The notes below the pieces were generated by a model. The model did not search any database. It had not been told where the DNA came from and saw nothing but the letters and a program-made list of their open reading frames with translations. A stretch of DNA of 64,000 nt from an uncultured Methanomicrobiaceae archaeon (GTDB taxonomy: Archaea; Halobacteriota; Methanomicrobia; Methanomicrobiales; Methanoculleaceae): positions 160,001 through 224,000 of the forward strand of contig CAWGXH010000005.1 in assembly GCA_963826525.1 (NCBI GenBank). Direction: 5' to 3'. Position numbers and translations under genes: made by a program. Numbering within the stretch: the stretch's first letter is position 1; the number at the start of each line of letters is the position of its first letter. Shown one piece after another: positions 36,290-46,225 of this stretch.

Positions 36290-37528
36290 TCAGGCAAACA
36301 TCGCACCGTACGAGGTGTTGATGTGATGCTTGTCGAAGTCCAGCGAGAGCTTGTCGATCGCTTTCATGAAGTCGTCCTGCGTGACGGTCTCGTGCTCGCT
36401 CCGAATCGCGAACATACCTGCCTCCATGCAGACCGCCCGAAGGTCGGCACCGTTCTTTCCCTCGGTGAGGCGGGCGACCTCCGCAAGATCGACGTTCTCG
36501 CCGAGGTTCATGCCCTTCGTGTGGATCTTCATGATAGACAGCCGTCCCTGGGGGTCGGGGAGCGGAATCTCGATGATCCGGTCGAACCGTCCCGGCCGGA
36601 GGAGGGCGCGATCCAGGATATCGATCCGGTTGGTGGCGCCGATGATCTTGACATCGCCGCGGTTCTCAAAGCCGTCCATCTCGGCGAGGAGCTGCATGAG
36701 CGTCCGCTGCACCTCGCGGTCTCCCGAGGTCGTCGAATCGCTCCGGTGGGCACCGATCGCGTCGATCTCGTCGATGAAGATGATCGACGGCGCTTTCTGT
36801 TTGGCAAGTTCGAAGAGTTCGCGCACGAGCCGCGCCCCCTCGCCGATATACTTCTGCACGAGCTCCGAACCGACGACACGGAGGAAGTGCGCGTTCGTAT
36901 GGTGCGCGACCGCCCGCGCGAGCAGCGTCTTCCCGGTTCCGGGAGGGCCGTAGAGGAGGACGCCCTTCGGCGGCGCGATGCCGATCTGCTCGAAGAGATG
37001 GGGCTTTGTGAGCGGGAGCTCGACTGCCTCCTGGATCTCTACGATCTGCGGCTCGAGGCCGCCGATACTCTCGTAGCGCTCTTCAGGGGATTCGATAAGT
37101 TCCATGCCGTAGACCTGCGAGTCGTAACTCGTGGGGAGGATGTCGACGATGGCAAGGGACTGCTGGTTTAAGGTACACCGCACACCCGGCTTGAGGAGAT
37201 CGGGATCGATGAGCTGCGATGTGCGGACGAGGAACCGCGGGCCTGCACTGCTCCGCACGATGACCCGGTTATTGTCAACGACGTCGGTGACCGTTCCGAT
37301 TACGAGAGGGGGGCTCCTGAGCTGCTCGATCTCGCTCTTGAGCTTCCGGAGCTCCCGCTGGTACCGGATCTTCTGGGTTTCGATATAGCGTTTTTCAGAC
37401 TCCATCTGCCTGAACTGCTCCCGCAGTTCCAGATTTCGGTTTTCGAGGTTGGTTATCCGTTCAAGCAGGTACTGGTAAAGATCTTCACCGGTATCCTTGT
37501 CTGGCGCTTGCCGAGCAATATCTCCCAT
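36290..37528 (-). CDS. pan: Proteasome-activating nucleotidase, paralog 2 (intact)
   Basis: Coiled coil, [46 protein letters not shown]; C-terminus AMFA. Confidence 0.96.
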
Positions 37529-37585
37529 AGGTCTCCTCGAATAATTATATAGGGTAAAATGGATATAAAGTTCTTTGCGAGAATC
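37529..37585. promoter_or_regulatory. Compact divergent pan/mbf1 promoter region
   Basis: 57-bp gap with TATA-like TTATATA (~37545) and TATAAAG (~37564), each ~20-30 nt from a start codon. Confidence 0.55.
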
Positions 37586-38083
37586 ATGCAATGTGAATTA
37601 TGCGGCGCTCCTATCCACGGACCGTCAAAGACAGTCCAGGTTGAAGGTGCAGAACTCTGTGTATGCATCAAATGTGCAAAATACGGTAAGGAAGTCCAGC
37701 AATCACGGCGAGGCGGTGCTCCTGTGCGAAGGCCGGGAACACCGGCGGTCTCGACGCCGCAGCCCCGGAGAAGGCCGAGGGATGTCTTCGACCTGATCGA
37801 GGGCGATATCGTCGATGACTACCGCGAGCGGATTCGCGCTGCCCGGGAGGAGAAGGGATGGTCTACACTGGATCTTGCTCACGCGACGAAAGAGCGTGAG
37901 ATCCTGATCAAGAAGATCGAGAAGGGCGATCTCATTCCGGAGGACGCCGTTCGGAAAAAACTCGAGCAGGCGCTCGGCATCAAATTGATCGACTCCGCTG
38001 CCGACGAGACCGAGTCCCGCGGCGGCGGCAGAATGACGACGACCGTCGGGGATGTCATCTCCTTTAAGAAGATCCGGAAGTAA
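37586..38083 (+). CDS. mbf1: Archaeal multiprotein bridging factor aMBF1
   Basis: Zn ribbon MQCELCG...[10 protein letters not shown], Cro-like HTH, C-terminal TVGDV; adjacent to pan. Confidence 0.92.
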
Positions 38084-38191
38084 CCGGCAGGAACAGAGTC
38101 TTTTTCCGGAAACAATAGAGCAGCGTCGATCGTTATCGGGAAAGGGTTGTGTCCCTTTTCCCCTCGCCATTTCTCATCCTGCGTGCTTACC

Positions 38192-38201
38192 TTTTTATAG
38201 A
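38192..38201 (+). promoter_or_regulatory. TATA box of the aromatic operon leader transcript
   Basis: TTTTTATAGA; the core TTTATAGA lies 30-23 nt upstream of ATG 38224, the spacing expected for a leaderless archaeal mRNA. Confidence 0.6.
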
Positions 38202-38223
38202 TGGACGAAATATGATATTACCA

Positions 38224-38271
38224 ATGCGTGGTGAATGTTTTTTCGCCGGTGAATGCTTTTATCACTGGTAG
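38224..38271 (+). CDS. Putative aromatic-rich leader peptide MRGECFFAGECFYHW
   Basis: ATG CGT GGT GAA TGT TTT TTC GCC GGT GAA TGC TTT TAT CAC TGG TAG: 3 Phe, 1 Tyr and 1 Trp (plus His) in 15 codons, ending 184 nt upstream of the aro operon. Confidence 0.65.
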   Translation: MRGECFFAGECFYHW

Positions 38272-38358
38272 CGAAGGATCCATCCGCCGTGCAGGCCTGA
38301 ACAACGCACTTCTTCCGCAGGTTCACTCCACTACCGGATGGTGCCTGCCTGTTTGCAG

Positions 38359-38391
38359 TTATTTCCGCTTTTTTAGCACTTTTAGTTATTA
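38359..38391 (+). terminator. T-rich tract (incl. T6 at 38369-38374) in the aro leader; candidate archaeal termination site
   Basis: TTATTTCCGCTTTTTTAGCACTTTTAGTTATT between the leader ORF and the first gene; archaeal terminators are oligo-U tracts. Confidence 0.45.
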
Positions 38392-38455
38392 TCCCCGGAA
38401 CTGAAGCGTAATTCTACACCAGAATCGCTGACGTGCCGGATGAGGAGTTCTGATT

Positions 38456-39247
38456 ATGAGAGGAAAAGAAATTCGCATGGAACGTATCATGGATCGTAAT
38501 ACCGGAAAGACCATCATCGTACCGATGGATCACGGTGTAACGGTCGGGCCAATCCCGGGACTGATAGATCTAGGAAAGACCATCGACCTCGTGGCGGGGG
38601 GCGGGGCAAACGTGGTGATCGGGCATATGGGGCTTGCCCTGCATGGTCACCGGCGGCACGGCAGAGATGTCGGGCTCATCCTCCACCTCTCGGCGAGCAC
38701 CGCCGTCGGACCCGACCCGAACGATAAGGTGCTCGTCAATACCGTCACGAACGCCCTCAAAATGGGGGCGGACGGTGTCTCGGTGCACATCAATGTCGGT
38801 GCGAACTCGGAGGCCAAGATGCTCGAAGACCTCGGACGGGTGGCGATCGAGTGCATGGAGTGGGGGATGCCGCTGCTTGCGATGATGTACCCCCGCGGTG
38901 CGAAGATCGCGGACGAGCACGACGTCGAACACGTCAAACTCGCCGCCCGGGTGGCGGCGGAGCTCGGCGCCGATATCGTCAAGACCGTCTACACCGGCGA
39001 TCCCGACAGTTTCCGCGAGGTCACGCGGGGGTGCCCGGTCCCGGTGGTCGTCGCCGGCGGGTCGAAGACCGACGATATGGCCATCCTCGAACTGATCGAG
39101 GGGGCGATGGAGGGCGGTGCTGCCGGCATCTCCATCGGGAGGAATGCGTTCCAGCATCCCGCTCCGGAGAAACTGATAAGGGCTGCGGCGCTCATCGTAC
39201 ACGAAGGAAAACCGGCACACGAAGCAATCGAGATCCTGAGGGCGTGA
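38456..39247 (+). CDS. aroA': 2-amino-3,7-dideoxy-D-threo-hept-6-ulosonate synthase / class I aldolase (paralog 1)
   Basis: IVPMDHGV, LHLSAST, AMMYPRG, AELGADIVKT (Schiff-base Lys), VAGG, GRNAFQH; first gene of the aro operon. Confidence 0.88.
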   Translation: MRGKEIRMERIMDRNTGKTIIVPMDHGVTVGPIPGLIDLGKTIDLVAGGGANVVIGHMGLALHGHRRHGRDVGLILHLSASTAVGPDPNDKVLVNTVTNALKMGADGVSVHINVGANSEAKMLEDLGRVAIECMEWGMPLLAMMYPRGAKIADEHDVEHVKLAARVAAELGADIVKTVYTGDPDSFREVTRGCPVPVVVAGGSKTDDMAILELIEGAMEGGAAGISIGRNAFQHPAPEKLIRAAALIVHEGKPAHEAIEILRA

Positions 39248-39252
39248 AAGAG

Positions 39253-40038
39253 ATGATAGGAAAAGAGATACGTCTTGAACGAATCATGAACCGGAATACA
39301 GGAAGATCGGTGATCATCCCCATGGATCACGGGTTTACGCTCGGACAGATCGAGGGGCTCCGCAACATGACGGAGATTGTCTCCGAGGTCAGCGAAGCGG
39401 GTGCAAATGCCATCGTCCTCCATAAGGGGATGGTGAAGGGCGGCCACCGGAAGCATGGGCGGGATATCGGGCTCATCGTCCATCTCTCGGCGAGCACCTC
39501 GATGAACCCCGACCCGAACGACAAAGTGCTCGTCTGCACCGTCGAGGAGGCGGTCGCCCTCGGTGCGGATGCGGTCTCGATCCATATCAATCTCGGGGCG
39601 CCGAACGAATCACGGATGCTCGAGTCGGCGGGGCAGGTATCGAAAGAGTGCAACTGCTGGGGAATGCCGCTGCTCATTATGATCTACCCCCGCGGCGAAG
39701 GGATCGATCCCACGTCCCCGAAGGCGATCGGGCACTGTGTCCGGGTGGCGGAAGAGCTCGGCGCCGACCTGATCAAGACGAACTACACCGGGGATGCGGC
39801 ATCGTTCCGCCAGATCACCGATGCATGCTCGGTTCCCGTGATGGTCGCGGGCGGCGAGAAGGGCGGCGATATCGAGACGCTGACGACCCTCGGGGAGGCC
39901 GTGGCGGCCGGATCCGCCGGCGTCTGCATGGGCAGGAACGCGTTCCAGCGCGATAATCCGCGCCAGTTCATCCGGGCGATCTGCCGGGTAGTGCATGACG
40001 AAACCGACCCTGCCCGGGCGCTGGAGCTGGAAGGATGA
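39253..40038 (+). CDS. aroA': ADH synthase / class I aldolase (paralog 2)
   Basis: IIPMDHGF, VHLSAST, MIYPRG, EELGADLIKT, GRNAFQR. Confidence 0.85.
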   Translation: MIGKEIRLERIMNRNTGRSVIIPMDHGFTLGQIEGLRNMTEIVSEVSEAGANAIVLHKGMVKGGHRKHGRDIGLIVHLSASTSMNPDPNDKVLVCTVEEAVALGADAVSIHINLGAPNESRMLESAGQVSKECNCWGMPLLIMIYPRGEGIDPTSPKAIGHCVRVAEELGADLIKTNYTGDAASFRQITDACSVPVMVAGGEKGGDIETLTTLGEAVAAGSAGVCMGRNAFQRDNPRQFIRAICRVVHDETDPARALELEG

Positions 40039-41021
40039 AGGTCTTCTGGGTCGATATCCGGCCGTGGGATAAAGACCTCGCCACGACCGCCATCGAGAGC
40101 GGTGCGGATGCGCTGATGGTCGGCCGTGCTGATGACCTCCGTGAACTTGCCCGGACGACGGTCATTGCGCCCGATGGGGATCTCGTTCCCGGAGAGGATA
40201 TCTTCGAGGTGGCGATCGAGGATAAGGAGAGCGAAGAGGAGGCGGTCAGGCTTTCGCGGAAGGGATACGTGATCGTCAGCACCAGCGACTGGACGGTGAT
40301 CCCGCTCGAGAACCTGGTCGCGGCGTCCGACCGTATCATCGCGACGGTGACGAACCGCGCGGAGGCGGAACTCGCACTGACCGTCCTTGAGCGCGGCGTC
40401 GCCGGGATTCTGCTGAAGACCGGCGATCCGGCCGTCGTCCGTGAGGTTGCGTCGCTGATCGCATCCTCCGGCGGGAGCACCGATCTCATTCCCTTCACCG
40501 TCACCGGCATCCGGCCGGTCGGGATGGGAGATAGGGTCTGCGTCGATACCTGTTCGCTCCTCGCGGACGGACAGGGGATGCTCGTCGGCAACACCTCCTC
40601 GGCCTTCCTGCTCGTGCACCCGGAGACGCTGGAGAACCCCTACGTGGCTCCCCGGCCGTTCCGCGTCAATGCCGGTGCCGTCCATGCCTACATCATGCTC
40701 CCGGGCGGGAAGACGGCCTACCTCGCCGACCTGAAGGTCGGAGACCACGTCGCGGTCGCGGAAAGCGACGGCAGGACGACCGATGCGGTGGTCGGAAGGG
40801 TGAAGATCGAACGCCGGCCGCTCCTCCTCGTCGAGGCAAAGGCCGGCAGCGCCCGCGTCAGCCTGATCCTCCAGAATGCGGAGACGATACGCCTCGTGGG
40901 CGAGGACGGCGGCGCGATCTCGGTCGTCGACCTCAAAGAGGGTGACCGGATCCTCGGGGCTGCAACGGAAGGTGGCCGCCACTTCGGGATCGCGGTGAAG
41001 GAGACGATCCTTGAGAAGTGA
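40035..41021 (+). CDS. aroB': 3-dehydroquinate synthase II
   Basis: DWTVIPLENL, GDRVCVDTCS, RPFRVNAGAVHAY, LQNAETIRL, GRHFG. Confidence 0.95.
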   Translation: MKVFWVDIRPWDKDLATTAIESGADALMVGRADDLRELARTTVIAPDGDLVPGEDIFEVAIEDKESEEEAVRLSRKGYVIVSTSDWTVIPLENLVAASDRIIATVTNRAEAELALTVLERGVAGILLKTGDPAVVREVASLIASSGGSTDLIPFTVTGIRPVGMGDRVCVDTCSLLADGQGMLVGNTSSAFLLVHPETLENPYVAPRPFRVNAGAVHAYIMLPGGKTAYLADLKVGDHVAVAESDGRTTDAVVGRVKIERRPLLLVEAKAGSARVSLILQNAETIRLVGEDGGAISVVDLKEGDRILGAATEGGRHFGIAVKETILEK

Positions 41022-41025
41022 GCGC

Positions 41026-41850
41026 ATGCTGGCAGGGATCATCGGCGGCACCGGAAAGATGGGGAGGTTCTTTGCGTCCGTCTTTTCTGCCGCCGGATGG
41101 GATGTCATCGTATCGGGGCGCGATACGCCTCTCTCCAACCGCGAGGTCGCAGAGCGAGCGGACGTGGTGATGGTCGCGGTTCCGATAGGGAGGACGATAG
41201 CCGTCATCGACGAGATCGCCCCGGTGCTTGCGGAGGAGCAGATCCTCTGCGACATCACCTCGCTGAAGGTGGAGCCCGTCCGCGCCATGCTCGCCTCGAA
41301 GGCCGGTGTCGTGGGGCTGCACCCGATGTTCGGCCCGGGCGCGGAGTCGCTTTTGAACCAGACGATCATCGTCACCCCCGCACGCTGCGACGGGGCGGCG
41401 CTCGACCGCCTGCTCGGTATCTTCCGCGAGCAGGGGGCGGTGCTGACCTTCGCCACGCCCGAAGAGCACGACCGGATGATGGCGGTCATCCAGGGGCTGA
41501 CACACTTTGCGACGCTCTGTGCGGCCGATACGATCCGGCGTGCCGGGGTGGACGTCGAGGAGTCGCTCGCGTTCACGAGCCCCATCTACCGTATCCAGAT
41601 GGGACTGATCGGGCGGCTGCTCGCCCAGGACGCCGACCTCTACGGCGATATGCTCCGGCTGAACCCGGCCGTGCCCGAGGTGCTGGCCGCGTTCGAGGAT
41701 GCCGCAAAGAGTCTCCGCACGATCGTGGAGGCGGGCGACCTTGCTGCCTTCCGCGATTTTTTCGCGAAGAACACCGATCACTATGCCTCCTACGGGAAAA
41801 CGGCCACGGAAGAGACCGACGATCTTATCAGATATATGGTGACGCGATGA
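41026..41850 (+). CDS. tyrA: Prephenate dehydrogenase
   Basis: GIIGGTGKMG, DITSLK, HPMFGP, EEHDRMMAVIQGLTH. Confidence 0.93.
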   Translation: MLAGIIGGTGKMGRFFASVFSAAGWDVIVSGRDTPLSNREVAERADVVMVAVPIGRTIAVIDEIAPVLAEEQILCDITSLKVEPVRAMLASKAGVVGLHPMFGPGAESLLNQTIIVTPARCDGAALDRLLGIFREQGAVLTFATPEEHDRMMAVIQGLTHFATLCAADTIRRAGVDVEESLAFTSPIYRIQMGLIGRLLAQDADLYGDMLRLNPAVPEVLAAFEDAAKSLRTIVEAGDLAAFRDFFAKNTDHYASYGKTATEETDDLIRYMVTR

Positions 41851-42644
41851 CCCTCCTGACACTCGGCCCTGCCGGAACTTTCAGCCACGAGCTCGCCCTG
41901 CGGCTCTACGGCGACGATATCGAACTTCTCCCGACGATCGGAAAGGTCATCGAATCGGTCGCCTCCGGCACGGCGGACGGCCTCGTGCCGATCGAGAACA
42001 GCGAAGCCGGCGGTGTCGGCTCGACCCTCCGGGGGCTCCAGGATGCCGGGGTCTTCATCGTCGAAGAGGCGTACCTGCCGATCCGTCACCATTTCGCAGC
42101 CCGGTGCGATCCCGGCGATCTTGCCGTGATCTATGCTCACCCCCAGACCCATGAGCAGTGCAGCGTGTTTCTCGACCGACTCGGGGTCGATGTCGTGCAT
42201 ACCAGCAGCAACGCGGCGAGCGCGCTTGCCATGCTCGAGCGTGAGCGTGCCGGGGCGATCGTCTCCTCGAGTGCCGCGGAGATCTACTGCCTTCCGGTTA
42301 TCCGGCGGGACGTGCAGAACAGCATGCAGAACGTCACCCGGTTCGTCCGGATATCGGCGACTCCGCGGGACGAAGCGGGCTGCACCAGGTGCAGCATCCT
42401 CGTCGACCCCGCTACGAACCGGGCAGGTCTGCTCCACGACATTCTCGGGGTCTTTGCCGTCCGCTCCATCAACTTAACGAGGATCGAGTCGCGGCCGTCC
42501 CGGCGGGGGATGGGGCGGTACGTCTTCTTCATCGACTTCGATCTCGCGCCCGGGTGGGAGGAGGCGAGGGAGGAACTTCGGAGAATGACCACGGTGAAGG
42601 AACTCGGCTGCTACTCGAGGAGGGAGATGCCGGCATGGACGTAA
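41847..42644 (+). CDS. pheA: Prephenate dehydratase with ACT domain
   Basis: LGPAGTFSH, VPIENS, HPQTHEQC, NVTRF, INLTRIESRPS. Confidence 0.93.
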   Translation: MTLLTLGPAGTFSHELALRLYGDDIELLPTIGKVIESVASGTADGLVPIENSEAGGVGSTLRGLQDAGVFIVEEAYLPIRHHFAARCDPGDLAVIYAHPQTHEQCSVFLDRLGVDVVHTSSNAASALAMLERERAGAIVSSSAAEIYCLPVIRRDVQNSMQNVTRFVRISATPRDEAGCTRCSILVDPATNRAGLLHDILGVFAVRSINLTRIESRPSRRGMGRYVFFIDFDLAPGWEEAREELRRMTTVKELGCYSRREMPAWT

Positions 42645-43904
42645 CCGTCTCCCGGAGTCCCGCGGTGGACCTGACGTTCGCTGCTCCTCCCTCGAAGAGC
42701 TATACGCACCGGGCGCTGATCGCCGCCTCGCTCGCCTCGGGCCGGAGCCGGATTTGCCGCCCGCTCGATGCCGACGATACCCGGCTGACCGCCCGGGCGC
42801 TCCGGAATCTCGGCGTTCCGGTCGACTGGCAGGGCAGCGAGATCATCGTCGACGGAACCGGCGGGGAGCTCCCGACCGGAGATCCGGTCACGCTCGATTC
42901 CTCGGCAACTCCGGGACGAGCCTCCGGCTTCTCTCCTCGATAGCCCTCGTATCGCCGCGTCCGGTGGTGCTCACCGGGAACCGGCGGATGCTGGAGCGGC
43001 CGCTCGGGCCGCTCGTAGAGGCGCTCCGTGCCCTCGGCGGTGAGGCCGTCTACCTCGGGAAACCCGGCTTTCCCCCGATCCGGGTCGAGGGGAGGCTTGC
43101 CGGCGGGACGGCCGTCGTCGATGCAAGTATGAGCAGCCAGTTCATCTCGTCGATCCTGATGGCCGCTCCCTGTGCCGACGAGGACGTCGAACTCGAAATC
43201 CCGGAGATGCCCGCATCCCGGTCGTACCTCGACGTGACGGTCGACGTCATGGAGGCGTTCGGCGCACGGGTCGAACGGGACGGGTATACCCGCTTCCGGG
43301 TGCGGCGCGGCACCCGCTATACCGGCAGGGAGTACACCGTCGAGGGCGACTACTCGTCGGCCTCCTACTTCTTTGCCGCGGCGGCTATCTGCGGCGGCAC
43401 CGTCCGTGTGAACCACTTAAGCCCCGCATCGGTGCAGGGCGACCGGCGGTTCCTCGACGCGCTCGAAGCGATGGGGTGTCTCGTCGCGTCATCGGTCGAT
43501 ACGGTGACCGTCACGCGGAAGGGCGAGCTCTCCGGCATCACCATCGATATGTCATCCGCCCCCGATACGGTGCAGACGCTCGCGGTCGTTGCGGCCACGG
43601 CAGCGACGCCGACGACGATCACCGGGTCGGGCACCTGCAGTACAAGGAGAGCGACCGGATTGGGATCACGGCGGAGATCCTGCAGAGGATGGGAGCCAGT
43701 GTCTCGGTCGGCACCGACCGGATCACCATCACCCCGGCCCCGCTCCACGGCGTGGTCGTCGACCCGGTCGACGATCACCGGACCGCCATGAGTTTCGCCG
43801 TCCTCGGCCTCGGGGTCGGCGGAATGACGATCCGGGATGCGGAGTGCGTCGGCAAGTCGTTCCCCGGGTTCTGGGATGCCCTCACAGAGGCGGGACTGCT
43901 ATGA
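42635..43904 (+). CDS. aroA: EPSP synthase (frameshifted)
   Basis: PPSKSYTHRAL, GNSGTSLR, SSQFISS, EGDYSSA, KESDRI, DDHRTAMS, KSFPGFW. Confidence 0.95.
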
Positions 43905-45226: not shown

Positions 45227-46225
45227 ATACGTTTGGGAGAAACTTTCGGGTCACGACATTCGGAGAGAGCCATGGAAAGGCGCTCGGAGCCGTCATCGAG
45301 GCTGCCCTCCCGGTATCGCGCTGACCGAGGCGGATATCCAGCCCTACCTCGACAGGAGGAGGCCGGGCACGAGCAGCCTCGTCTCTCCCCGCAGAGAGGC
45401 GGACAGGATCGAGATCCTCTCCGGCACCTTCGAGGGCGTCACGACCGGGACGCCGATCGCTCTTGTCGTCTATAACCGGAATCAGGAGTCCGGCGACTAC
45501 GATGCACTCCGCGACATTTCCGTCCCGGTCACGCCGACTACTCGTATGCCGCGAAGTCCGGTATCCGCGACCACCGTGGAGGCGGGCGGAGTCCGCCGGG
45601 AGACGCTCTCCCGCGTCGCGGCAGGCGCGGTTGCGGCGAAGTGCCTCGAGCGCTACGGCATCGGTGTTGCCGGGCGGATCTGTGAGATCGGCGGAGAGAC
45701 CACCCTCGAGGGAATGGAAGAGGCGATCCGCACCGCACGGCAGGAGGGCGACTCCGTCGGCGGGATCGTGGAGGTCGTCGTCTCCGGGTGTCCGTCGGGG
45801 CTCGGCGACCCGGTCTTCGGGAAACTCGACGCAATGATCGCCGCCGCCCTGATGGGTATCGGTGCGGTGAAGGGCGTCGAAATCGGAGCCGGTTTCGCCG
45901 TAGCACGGATGCGCGGGAGCGAGAATAACGACCCGATCACCCCGAAGGATTCGCTGGCAATAACGCCGGCGGCATCCTCGGCGGGATCAGCACCGGTCAG
46001 CCGATCGTGGCCAGGATCGCCGTCAAGCCCACGCCCTCGATCGAAAAAGAGCAGACGACGATCGATACGGCTGGAAATGAGCGGCGGATACGGATACATG
46101 GCCGCCACGACCCCTGCATCGCGGTGCGGGTCGTGCCGGTCGCGGAGTGCATGCTGGCGCTCGTGATCCTCGACGCTCTCCTCGAGCAGGAGAAGTACCG
46201 CGGTTTCGCCGTGAGAAAAGAGTGA
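45223..46225 (+). CDS. aroC: Chorismate synthase (several frameshifts)
   Basis: [41 protein letters not shown]. Confidence 0.93.

Follow-up and report, generated by a model that had tools for sequence, protein, structure and literature searches.

Leader-peptide sensors and the aro leader

In the enterobacterial pheL-pheA, trpL and hisL attenuators, which are represented in Rfam by Phe_leader and other families, the translating ribosome senses charged tRNA. At ermC, cat and cmlA, and at Bacillus subtilis rtpLP-rtpA, a ribosome stalled on the leader frees the Shine-Dalgarno (SD) sequence of the next gene. The locus described here is the leader of an archaeal operon for aromatic amino acid (aro) biosynthesis. 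It lies in a 64,000-nucleotide (nt) stretch of DNA, the window, from an uncultured Methanomicrobiaceae archaeon (GenBank assembly GCA_963826525.1, contig CAWGXH010000005.1, positions 160,001 to 224,000). Two short overlapping open reading frames (ORFs), ORF1 (38224-38271) and ORF2 (38231-38404), precede aroA', the first gene of the operon; these, aroA' and the leader features given below lie on the forward (+) strand. On balance, comparison of relatives favors reading this region as a leaderless, ribosome-sensed aromatic leader with an output that is probably translational.

Like the enterobacterial attenuators, this locus places a leader ORF rich in end-product codons ahead of a biosynthetic operon. 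Unlike them, it lacks a U run behind the hairpin that could make a terminator, shows no antiterminator in minimum-free-energy folds, and has no Rfam match on its leader. Moreover, the leader ORF is 57 codons long, carries its regulatory codons at the 3' end, and has a predicted leaderless start. The trigger would also differ from those of systems that free an SD sequence: stalling is drug-triggered at ermC and cat and depends at rtpLP on three Trp codons in a 10-codon leader, whereas the aro trigger would be a mixed Phe/Tyr/Trp tract.

Among known systems, the mycobacterial leaderless Cys leader comes closest to the mechanism proposed here. As Canestrari et al. (bioRxiv 10.1101/834739) describe, polycysteine leaderless short ORFs form a Cys "ribulon" in mycobacteria, in which the same logic has been shown experimentally. 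There, the biosynthetic operon has as its first cistron a leaderless short ORF that contains a run of codons for the amino acid under control, the arrangement predicted for the aro leader. The mycobacterial ORFs differ in being bacterial, in addressing one amino acid, and in using one frame. In contrast, the aro leader is archaeal, has a TATA promoter, and combines three aromatic amino acids in one tail. It mostly uses two overlapping frames, carries a conserved 70-nt 5' RNA domain, and is known here from sequence alone.

In other archaea, the same physiological target is controlled by proteins. TrpY of M. thermautotrophicus and Tar (TK0271) of T. kodakarensis are described in portions of PMC6737238 as DNA-binding regulators at aro, tyr-phe and trp promoters, with no leader ORF in the control described there. 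The paper uses neither the term "attenuation" nor "leader peptide". No published archaeal leader-peptide sensor was found in the portions of the literature covered, which include PMC13675443 and PMC11456600.

A conserved leader frame with an aromatic tail

At the sequence level, comparison of relatives establishes a leader frame, a frame-specific aromatic tail, avoidance of stop codons, a structured spacer, and a conserved 5' RNA domain. The comparison set comprises 82 aroA' upstream regions. They come from 80 genomes and represent 34 genera in 6 families of the order to which the window's own genome is assigned; sequences outnumber genomes because the window's assembly holds three copies. Each of 41 relatives has an aroA' orthologue, and at E <= 1e-100 so do 145 of 161 genomes belonging to the order. 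Two leader types can be distinguished: A-type, with 66 sequences from 27 genera, the window included, and B-type, with 16 sequences from 7 genera and the C7 copy of the window's own assembly. Stop and tail statistics use one representative for each of 27 genera. The relatives are not independent of one another, although ORF2 middles and tails cannot be aligned between families.

ORF2 reads VNVFSPVNAF...CSYFRFFSTFSYYPRN in the +1 frame relative to ORF1. It runs for 57 codons from a GTG at 38231 to a TGA at 38402-38404, and a second GTG stands ahead of it at 38228. Its aromatic tail, Y F R F F S T F S Y Y (38360-38392), has 7 aromatic codons among 11. All 82 sequences contain a leader frame that stops 32-230 nt ahead of aroA' and has 4-12 Phe, Tyr or Trp in its last 16 residues. 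Within the last 20 codons, Phe and Tyr are both present in 82/82 sequences and Trp in 53/82.

The frame was fixed by the conserved 5' motif, independently of the tail. Anchored in this way, it stays open for 41-75 codons in 66/66 sequences; each of the other two frames runs into a stop after 0-25 codons. The genus representatives have 0 stops in 1,423 codons of this frame, compared with 79 and 73 in 1,396 codons of the other frames. Over the last 14 codons, the mean number of aromatic residues is 7.1 in frame. Reading the other two frames gives 1.4 and 2.8, the reverse strand gives 0.1-1.1, and the coding frame scores highest in 27 of 27 genera. The base composition of the tail (44% T) predicts 2.8 aromatics over the same length. 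Equally aromatic tails are found in only 13 of 82,425 frames of the window's genome, and two of these 13 are copies of the aro leader. In addition, all four indel events in ORF2 of genus g6 (18 species) are multiples of three.

These results change the view taken in the earlier note on this DNA, which regarded the ~185 nt after ORF1 as untranslated. Three-frame translation reveals that the segment is an open frame, ORF2, and that it holds the main aromatic cluster. The T-rich tract at ~38370-38390, which the note placed in that untranslated segment, consists of Phe and Tyr codons of ORF2.

In A-type leaders, ORF2 begins at a conserved GTG (ATG in two lineages) located 7 nt 3' of the ORF1 ATG, or 25 nt where an 18-nt insertion is present. 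The B-type sequences have a single ATG ORF that begins 30-34 nt past a TATA-like box and continues without interruption into the aromatic tail. Ribosomes may enter the A-type ORF2 (27 genera, window included) either by initiating at its GUG or by slipping +1 out of ORF1.

Two genera of different families, g19 (loci L045, L046, L078, L079) and g16 (L036, L072, L073), share the same leader tail, FWF(R/K)Q followed by a stop.

ORF1, MRGECFFAGECFYHW, spans 15 codons and follows a TATA-like box, TTTTTATAGA, at 38192-38201. In archaea, the spacing between TATA box and start makes the transcript start predictable from the position of the box, and here the prediction falls at ~38222-38224, at the A of the ORF1 ATG. 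In all 27 genera, the lineages with the 18-nt insertion among them, the best TATA-like octamer begins 29-33 nt ahead of the ORF1 ATG. Judging by this spacing, the transcript probably starts at or within 2 nt of the AUG at 38224. The 15-codon ORF and the TATA box at leaderless spacing are as first described, and both are conserved.

ORF1 occurs in 66/66 A-type sequences with a length of 14-26 codons, exactly 15 in 46 of them. Taken alone, such an ORF is not rare: in the crude upstream regions of the window's genome, 190 of 8,876 frames have at least five Phe, Tyr or Trp per 14-residue window. It goes beyond chance because it is conserved across relatives. The comparison of orthologous upstream regions that the earlier note had proposed finds the short ORF with its Phe and Tyr codons in every A-type sequence, and these codons vary synonymously (UUC/UUU, UAU/UAC). 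The note had also counted Trp among the residues of ORF1. Phe and Tyr are kept throughout, but a Trp codon is present in only 4/66 sequences.

The hairpin before aroA' and a proposed mechanism

Between the tail and aroA', the window can form a hairpin that extends from the last Tyr codon to the SD sequence (38392-38447). Its 5' arm lies at 38392-38398 and its 3' arm at 38436-38439 and 38444-38446; the SD sequence, GAGGAG, occupies 38442-38447 ahead of the aroA' start at 38456. Across relatives, the spacer is more stable than its dinucleotide shuffles, with a mean z score per genus of -2.1 (31 genera) and values below -1 in 27 of the 31. This test covers 75 of the 82 sequences; in the seven left out, tail picking scored fewer than five aromatic residues. 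Furthermore, the arm that follows the tail covaries with the SD-proximal window (-12.13 versus -9.98 kcal/mol, 2 of 20,000 permutations) in a test on 30 genera, with four long-spacer genera left out. MAFFT alignment followed by RNAalifold gave no consensus for the spacer hairpin across families, because the MAFFT alignment is not structural. In family f1, the spacer stem lacks covariation because it is invariant there.

In the proposed mechanism, the region would be the leader of the aro operon messenger, transcribed from the AUG at 38224 or an adjacent position. Ribosomes would read the leader frame as far as the cluster of Phe, Tyr and often Trp codons, which lies beside a hairpin that touches the SD sequence. 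When charged aromatic tRNAs are scarce, ribosomes would dwell on the tail codons. A ribosome on UAU UAU (38387-38392) would have the hairpin's 5' arm inside its mRNA channel, leaving the SD sequence free and aroA' translated, and the translated operon mRNA would also be spared factor-dependent termination. When aromatic amino acids are abundant, the ribosome would leave at the UGA, the hairpin would shut, and expression would drop. The transcript start, translation, stalling, sign of the response, and output step in this scheme are all predictions.

The expected sign of the response points to translation as the output. A ribosome parked by the hairpin should free the ribosome-binding site, which gives the translational model the right sign. 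In contrast, when a ribosome stalls behind the polymerase, RNA should become exposed and factor-dependent termination should be favored; for a biosynthetic operon, transcription-level models would thus respond in the wrong direction unless there are alternative structures. Translation is therefore the better-fitting output, although support for it within the window is weak.

Several observations weigh against this scheme, and many of them concern the hairpin. In the window, it reaches -16.4 kcal/mol with a z score of only -1.33, and 17 of 200 shuffles do as well. Within the window's genus, the hairpin arms pair no better than mismatched arms. Nor is the SD core more likely to be paired in the leaders than in their shuffles. 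The helix starts within 10 nt of the last aromatic codon, but so does that of 89% of shuffles, which makes this distance uninformative. Ten of the 34 genera have a helix that ends 30-177 nt short of the ATG, and the output may therefore differ there.

Other points against it come from the frames and from expression. Substitutions in the middle of ORF2 fall 28/40/31 over the three codon positions, with no third-position excess, so that part is selected for openness only and is not conserved as a peptide. Phe codons are also found early in ORF2, distant from the hairpin. The scheme leaves the very strong conservation of nucleotides in the 5' block to be explained by something else, such as RNA structure. 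One metatranscriptome run yielded a 344-nt contig of a relative that lies wholly inside aroA' and does not cover the leader. Finally, no leader of this kind precedes the trp operon in the window's genome. A genome-wide look for other amino-acid-rich leader frames in the window's genome revealed nothing convincing.

A separate observation concerns genus g19, in which a strong hairpin (z about -5) is followed by U5 more than 100 nt ahead of aroA'. This element may be a transcription-termination variant of the switch.

Overlapping frames and possible frameshifting

The programmed +1 frameshift of prfB (RF2) combines a slippery YUU-U, a slow next codon and an SD-like element upstream, and some of its orthologues are frame-fused. 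The A-type leaders could be read in a related way, as a two-stage sensor, although this is unlikely. Scarcity of Phe- or Tyr-tRNA would then cause a +1 slip in ORF1 at two SD-assisted YUU-U sites, which would carry ribosomes into ORF2 and its tail and open the ribosome-binding site of aroA'. The P-site tRNA on YUU would slip when the next codon, a Phe codon (UUY) at site 1 and a Tyr codon (UAY) at site 2, is slow. Unslipped ribosomes would end after 15 codons, and only slipped ones would enter the 57-codon ORF2. The GGUGA located 4 nt before each site may pair with the 3' end of 16S rRNA, as at prfB. Where prfB has a stop as its slow codon, the leader would use a sense codon for an aromatic residue, and two sites would act in tandem, a comparison that applies only under the frameshift reading.

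The layout of ORF1 would permit such slips. Its codons are ATG CGT, then GGT GAA TGT TTT TTC GCC and GGT GAA TGC TTT TAT CAC, and finally TGG TAG. The two middle blocks are tandem 18-nt units, GGTGAATGTTTTT and GGTGAATGCTTTT (38230-38265), which form a direct repeat with a spacing of 18. Each unit has a GGUGA 5-mer set off by 4 nt from a U run, together with a codon that is aromatic when read in the ORF1 frame. The candidate slip sites lie at 38239-38244 (TTT TTC) and 38257-38262 (TTT TAT). At these U runs, the ORF1 frame reads YUU-UUY (Phe) and YUU-UAY (Tyr) in 66/66 sequences, with synonymous variation at the aromatic codons and an open +1 frame downstream. GGTGA or GGTGG precedes site 1 in 60/66 sequences and GGTGA precedes site 2 in 46/66, and the ORF1 stop follows 2-6 codons past the Tyr codon of site 2 in 65/66.

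Two further features speak for a slip. TATA spacing is held by the ORF1 ATG and not by the ORF2 start, even where the 18-nt insertion is present. One-frame fusions, the usual comparative mark of programmed frameshift genes, lie exactly at the T runs: in genus g22 and the C7 copy at site 1, and in genus g21 at site 2. Other points speak against it. ORF2 has its own conserved start codon, GTG or in two lineages ATG, which makes a slip unnecessary. The same nucleotides are held by a hairpin, P2, which also accounts for the conservation of UUY. T runs are hot spots for indels, so fusions would be expected there regardless, and the C7 contig also has a broken aroA', which means that its indel is possibly an assembly error. 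The low rating of a frameshift follows from these constraints: P2 restricts the same bases, T runs are prone to indels, and ORF2 can be started independently.

The assembly that contains these copies (G000) has three aroA' loci, namely the window (C5), C6:11357-12145 and C7:11359-12146 (loci L041 and L042). Compared with the window, AroA' is 100% identical in C6 and 96-97% identical in C7, where it lies in two pieces. In the C7 leader, a T run shorter by 1 nt fuses ORF1 to ORF2. The three copies point to several strains or to contamination, which is reported as 5.3%.

The third frame of the same segment contains a 5-codon mini-ORF at 38235-38252, ATG TTT TTT CGC CGG TGA (MFFRR and a stop). Many relatives retain it, as a side effect of the frame overlap.

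The conserved 5' RNA domain

The leader begins with a 5' RNA domain (38225-38293) in which a helix, P1, encloses the hairpin P2 and a second hairpin on the second unit. In the fold of the window's own leader, P1 pairs 38225-38233 with 38285-38293, and P2 pairs 38230-38235 with 38242-38247 (GGUGAA/UUCGCC). The P1 strands covary: matched strands have a mean of -11.14 kcal/mol against -8.79 for mismatched ones, and 0 of 20,000 permutations reach the matched mean. This test set the first 10 nt at the 5' end of the leader against a mid-leader window in 25 genus-by-variant representatives, leaving out six insertion-bearing sequences. The P1 variants AUGCG, AUGUG and AUGCA are each paired with their own complement. 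In P2, all substitutions in 44 sequences preserve pairing, and no pair is changed on both sides. A mid-leader inverted repeat was also observed, in which 38275-38286 is 83% complementary to 38335-38346 over 12 nt.

Such conservation raises the question of whether the 5' block itself is the real sensor, as a DNA operator or riboswitch-like RNA that binds a protein or ligand, with the frames being secondary. Positions 38224-38265 are near-invariant in nucleotides across families, a direct 13-nt repeat in tandem lies just 3' of the predicted transcript start, and P1 and P2 are backed by covariation or pair-preserving changes. Within the genome, a 23-nt stretch of the 5' block occurs only at copies of the aro leader. 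Two precedents also point in this direction: a palindrome stands ahead of aroA' in sister classes, and known archaeal aromatic operons are controlled by regulators such as TrpY and Tar, as portions of PMC6737238 describe.

Binding at the 5' block would nevertheless leave the coding evidence unexplained, namely stop avoidance over 41-75 codons, the frame-specific tail, and indels in multiples of three. B-type lineages have lost the block, yet they retain the leader ORF and tail. In the window, the stretch from the TATA box to the ATG contains no inverted repeat, although TRP-box and Tar motifs were not sought. An Rfam scan of 37000-39500 with E up to 10 returned two chance-level matches elsewhere and none on the leader. 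These results make the 5' block quite unlikely as the real sensor.

Possible transcription attenuation or small-protein role

Oligo-U serves as an intrinsic termination signal in archaea. The earlier note envisaged ORF1 as the sole sensor, and a classical transcription attenuator would follow from this view, with stalling on Phe, Tyr and Trp codons governing read-through at the oligo-T near 38370-38390. ORF1 is indeed conserved together with its Phe and Tyr codons, and T6 and T4 runs are present at 38369-38383. These runs, however, are in-frame Phe codons of a conserved open frame, and ORF1 ends ~100 nt short of the T tract. A ribosome stalled that far behind the polymerase should promote termination, and Trp, as noted, is rarely kept in ORF1.

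The folds point the same way. The window hairpin (38392-38446) is followed by GUUCUGAUUAUG, which has no U run, so it does not form an intrinsic terminator. No pair of terminator and antiterminator was found in the window, minimum-free-energy folds show no conspicuous alternative pairing, and the whole-leader fold has a z score of -0.60. Control through ORF1 by attenuation is accordingly very unlikely. The original proposal had left open whether stalling would act on read-through or on translation; the translational branch fits better, and the read-through branch lacks the paired structures.

It is extremely improbable that ORF2 is a small functional protein with an aromatic C-terminus and no sensing role: although its frame is conserved and open and retains the N-terminal motif VNVFSPVxxFI(S/T)xS, its middle lacks purifying selection, its sequence and length (41-75 codons) vary freely, it has no family match in Pfam or NCBIfam, no predicted protein of 31-100 aa in a large collection shares words with it, and it is strictly linked to aroA' in 82/82 sequences.

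Operon, neighboring genes and distribution

The first gene of the operon, aroA' (38456-39247), encodes a DeoC-family aldolase of the ADH synthase type (PF01791, E 1.3e-61). Pfam confirms the aro gene order that had been described after the leader. Two DeoC aldolases are followed by DHQ synthase II, PDH_N with PDH_C (tyrA, 41011-41850), and PDT with ACT (pheA), and then by EPSP synthase, a fusion of shikimate kinase with shikimate dehydrogenase, and part of a chorismate synthase. EPSP synthase (window 42389-43791) lies in two frames with a break near 42900, the pieces matching Pfam positions 11-92 and 83-329. Only positions 119-247 of the 327 in the chorismate synthase model are matched at 45233-46166. 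The split and the partial gene represent either frameshift errors in the assembly or broken genes.

Immediately upstream of the leader lies the gene for aMBF1 (37559-38083; TIGR00270, 167 bits). Of 30 large loci, 24 have it no more than 1.5 kb upstream of aroA', these 24 being all those of family f1 and one of f5. Eukaryotic Mbf1 restrains +1 frameshifting on stalled ribosomes. The adjacency of aMBF1 and the leader may be mere synteny.

Outside the order, twenty genomes from 14 other families of the phylum contain no comparable leader; one case, L099, is ambiguous, with a T/G-rich stretch that is aromatic in all three frames. Six loci from other families of the phylum, including several sister classes (L090, L095, L097, L098, L100 and L102), instead carry a palindrome of ~21 nt, GCTACTRTG-N3-CAYAGTAGC. 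It lies between a TATA-like box and the aroA' SD sequence, in the last ~60 nt before aroA'. From its sequence and position, the palindrome is likely an operator or a hairpin of the 5' untranslated region, and the same gene therefore seems to be controlled differently there.

Biological significance

Leader-peptide sensing is a textbook bacterial mechanism, and the aro leader is conserved in every examined genome of a whole archaeal order. Its overlapping mini-genes most likely let ribosomes sense aromatic supply, a switch so far described only in bacteria. ORF2 adds an unannotated, translated-looking frame that gene callers have missed. The leader consists of discrete, mutable parts, including start codons, U runs, the aromatic tail, and hairpin arms, which make its open questions directly testable.

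The locus bears on whether archaeal ribosomes serve as metabolite sensors, and on the interplay of leaderless initiation, transcription-translation coupling, and factor-dependent termination in archaea. It may also address the use of hungry codons for programmed frameshifting. If the frameshift reading were true, slip efficiency would be set by the supply of aromatic aminoacyl-tRNA, and this relationship would be conserved across an archaeal order.

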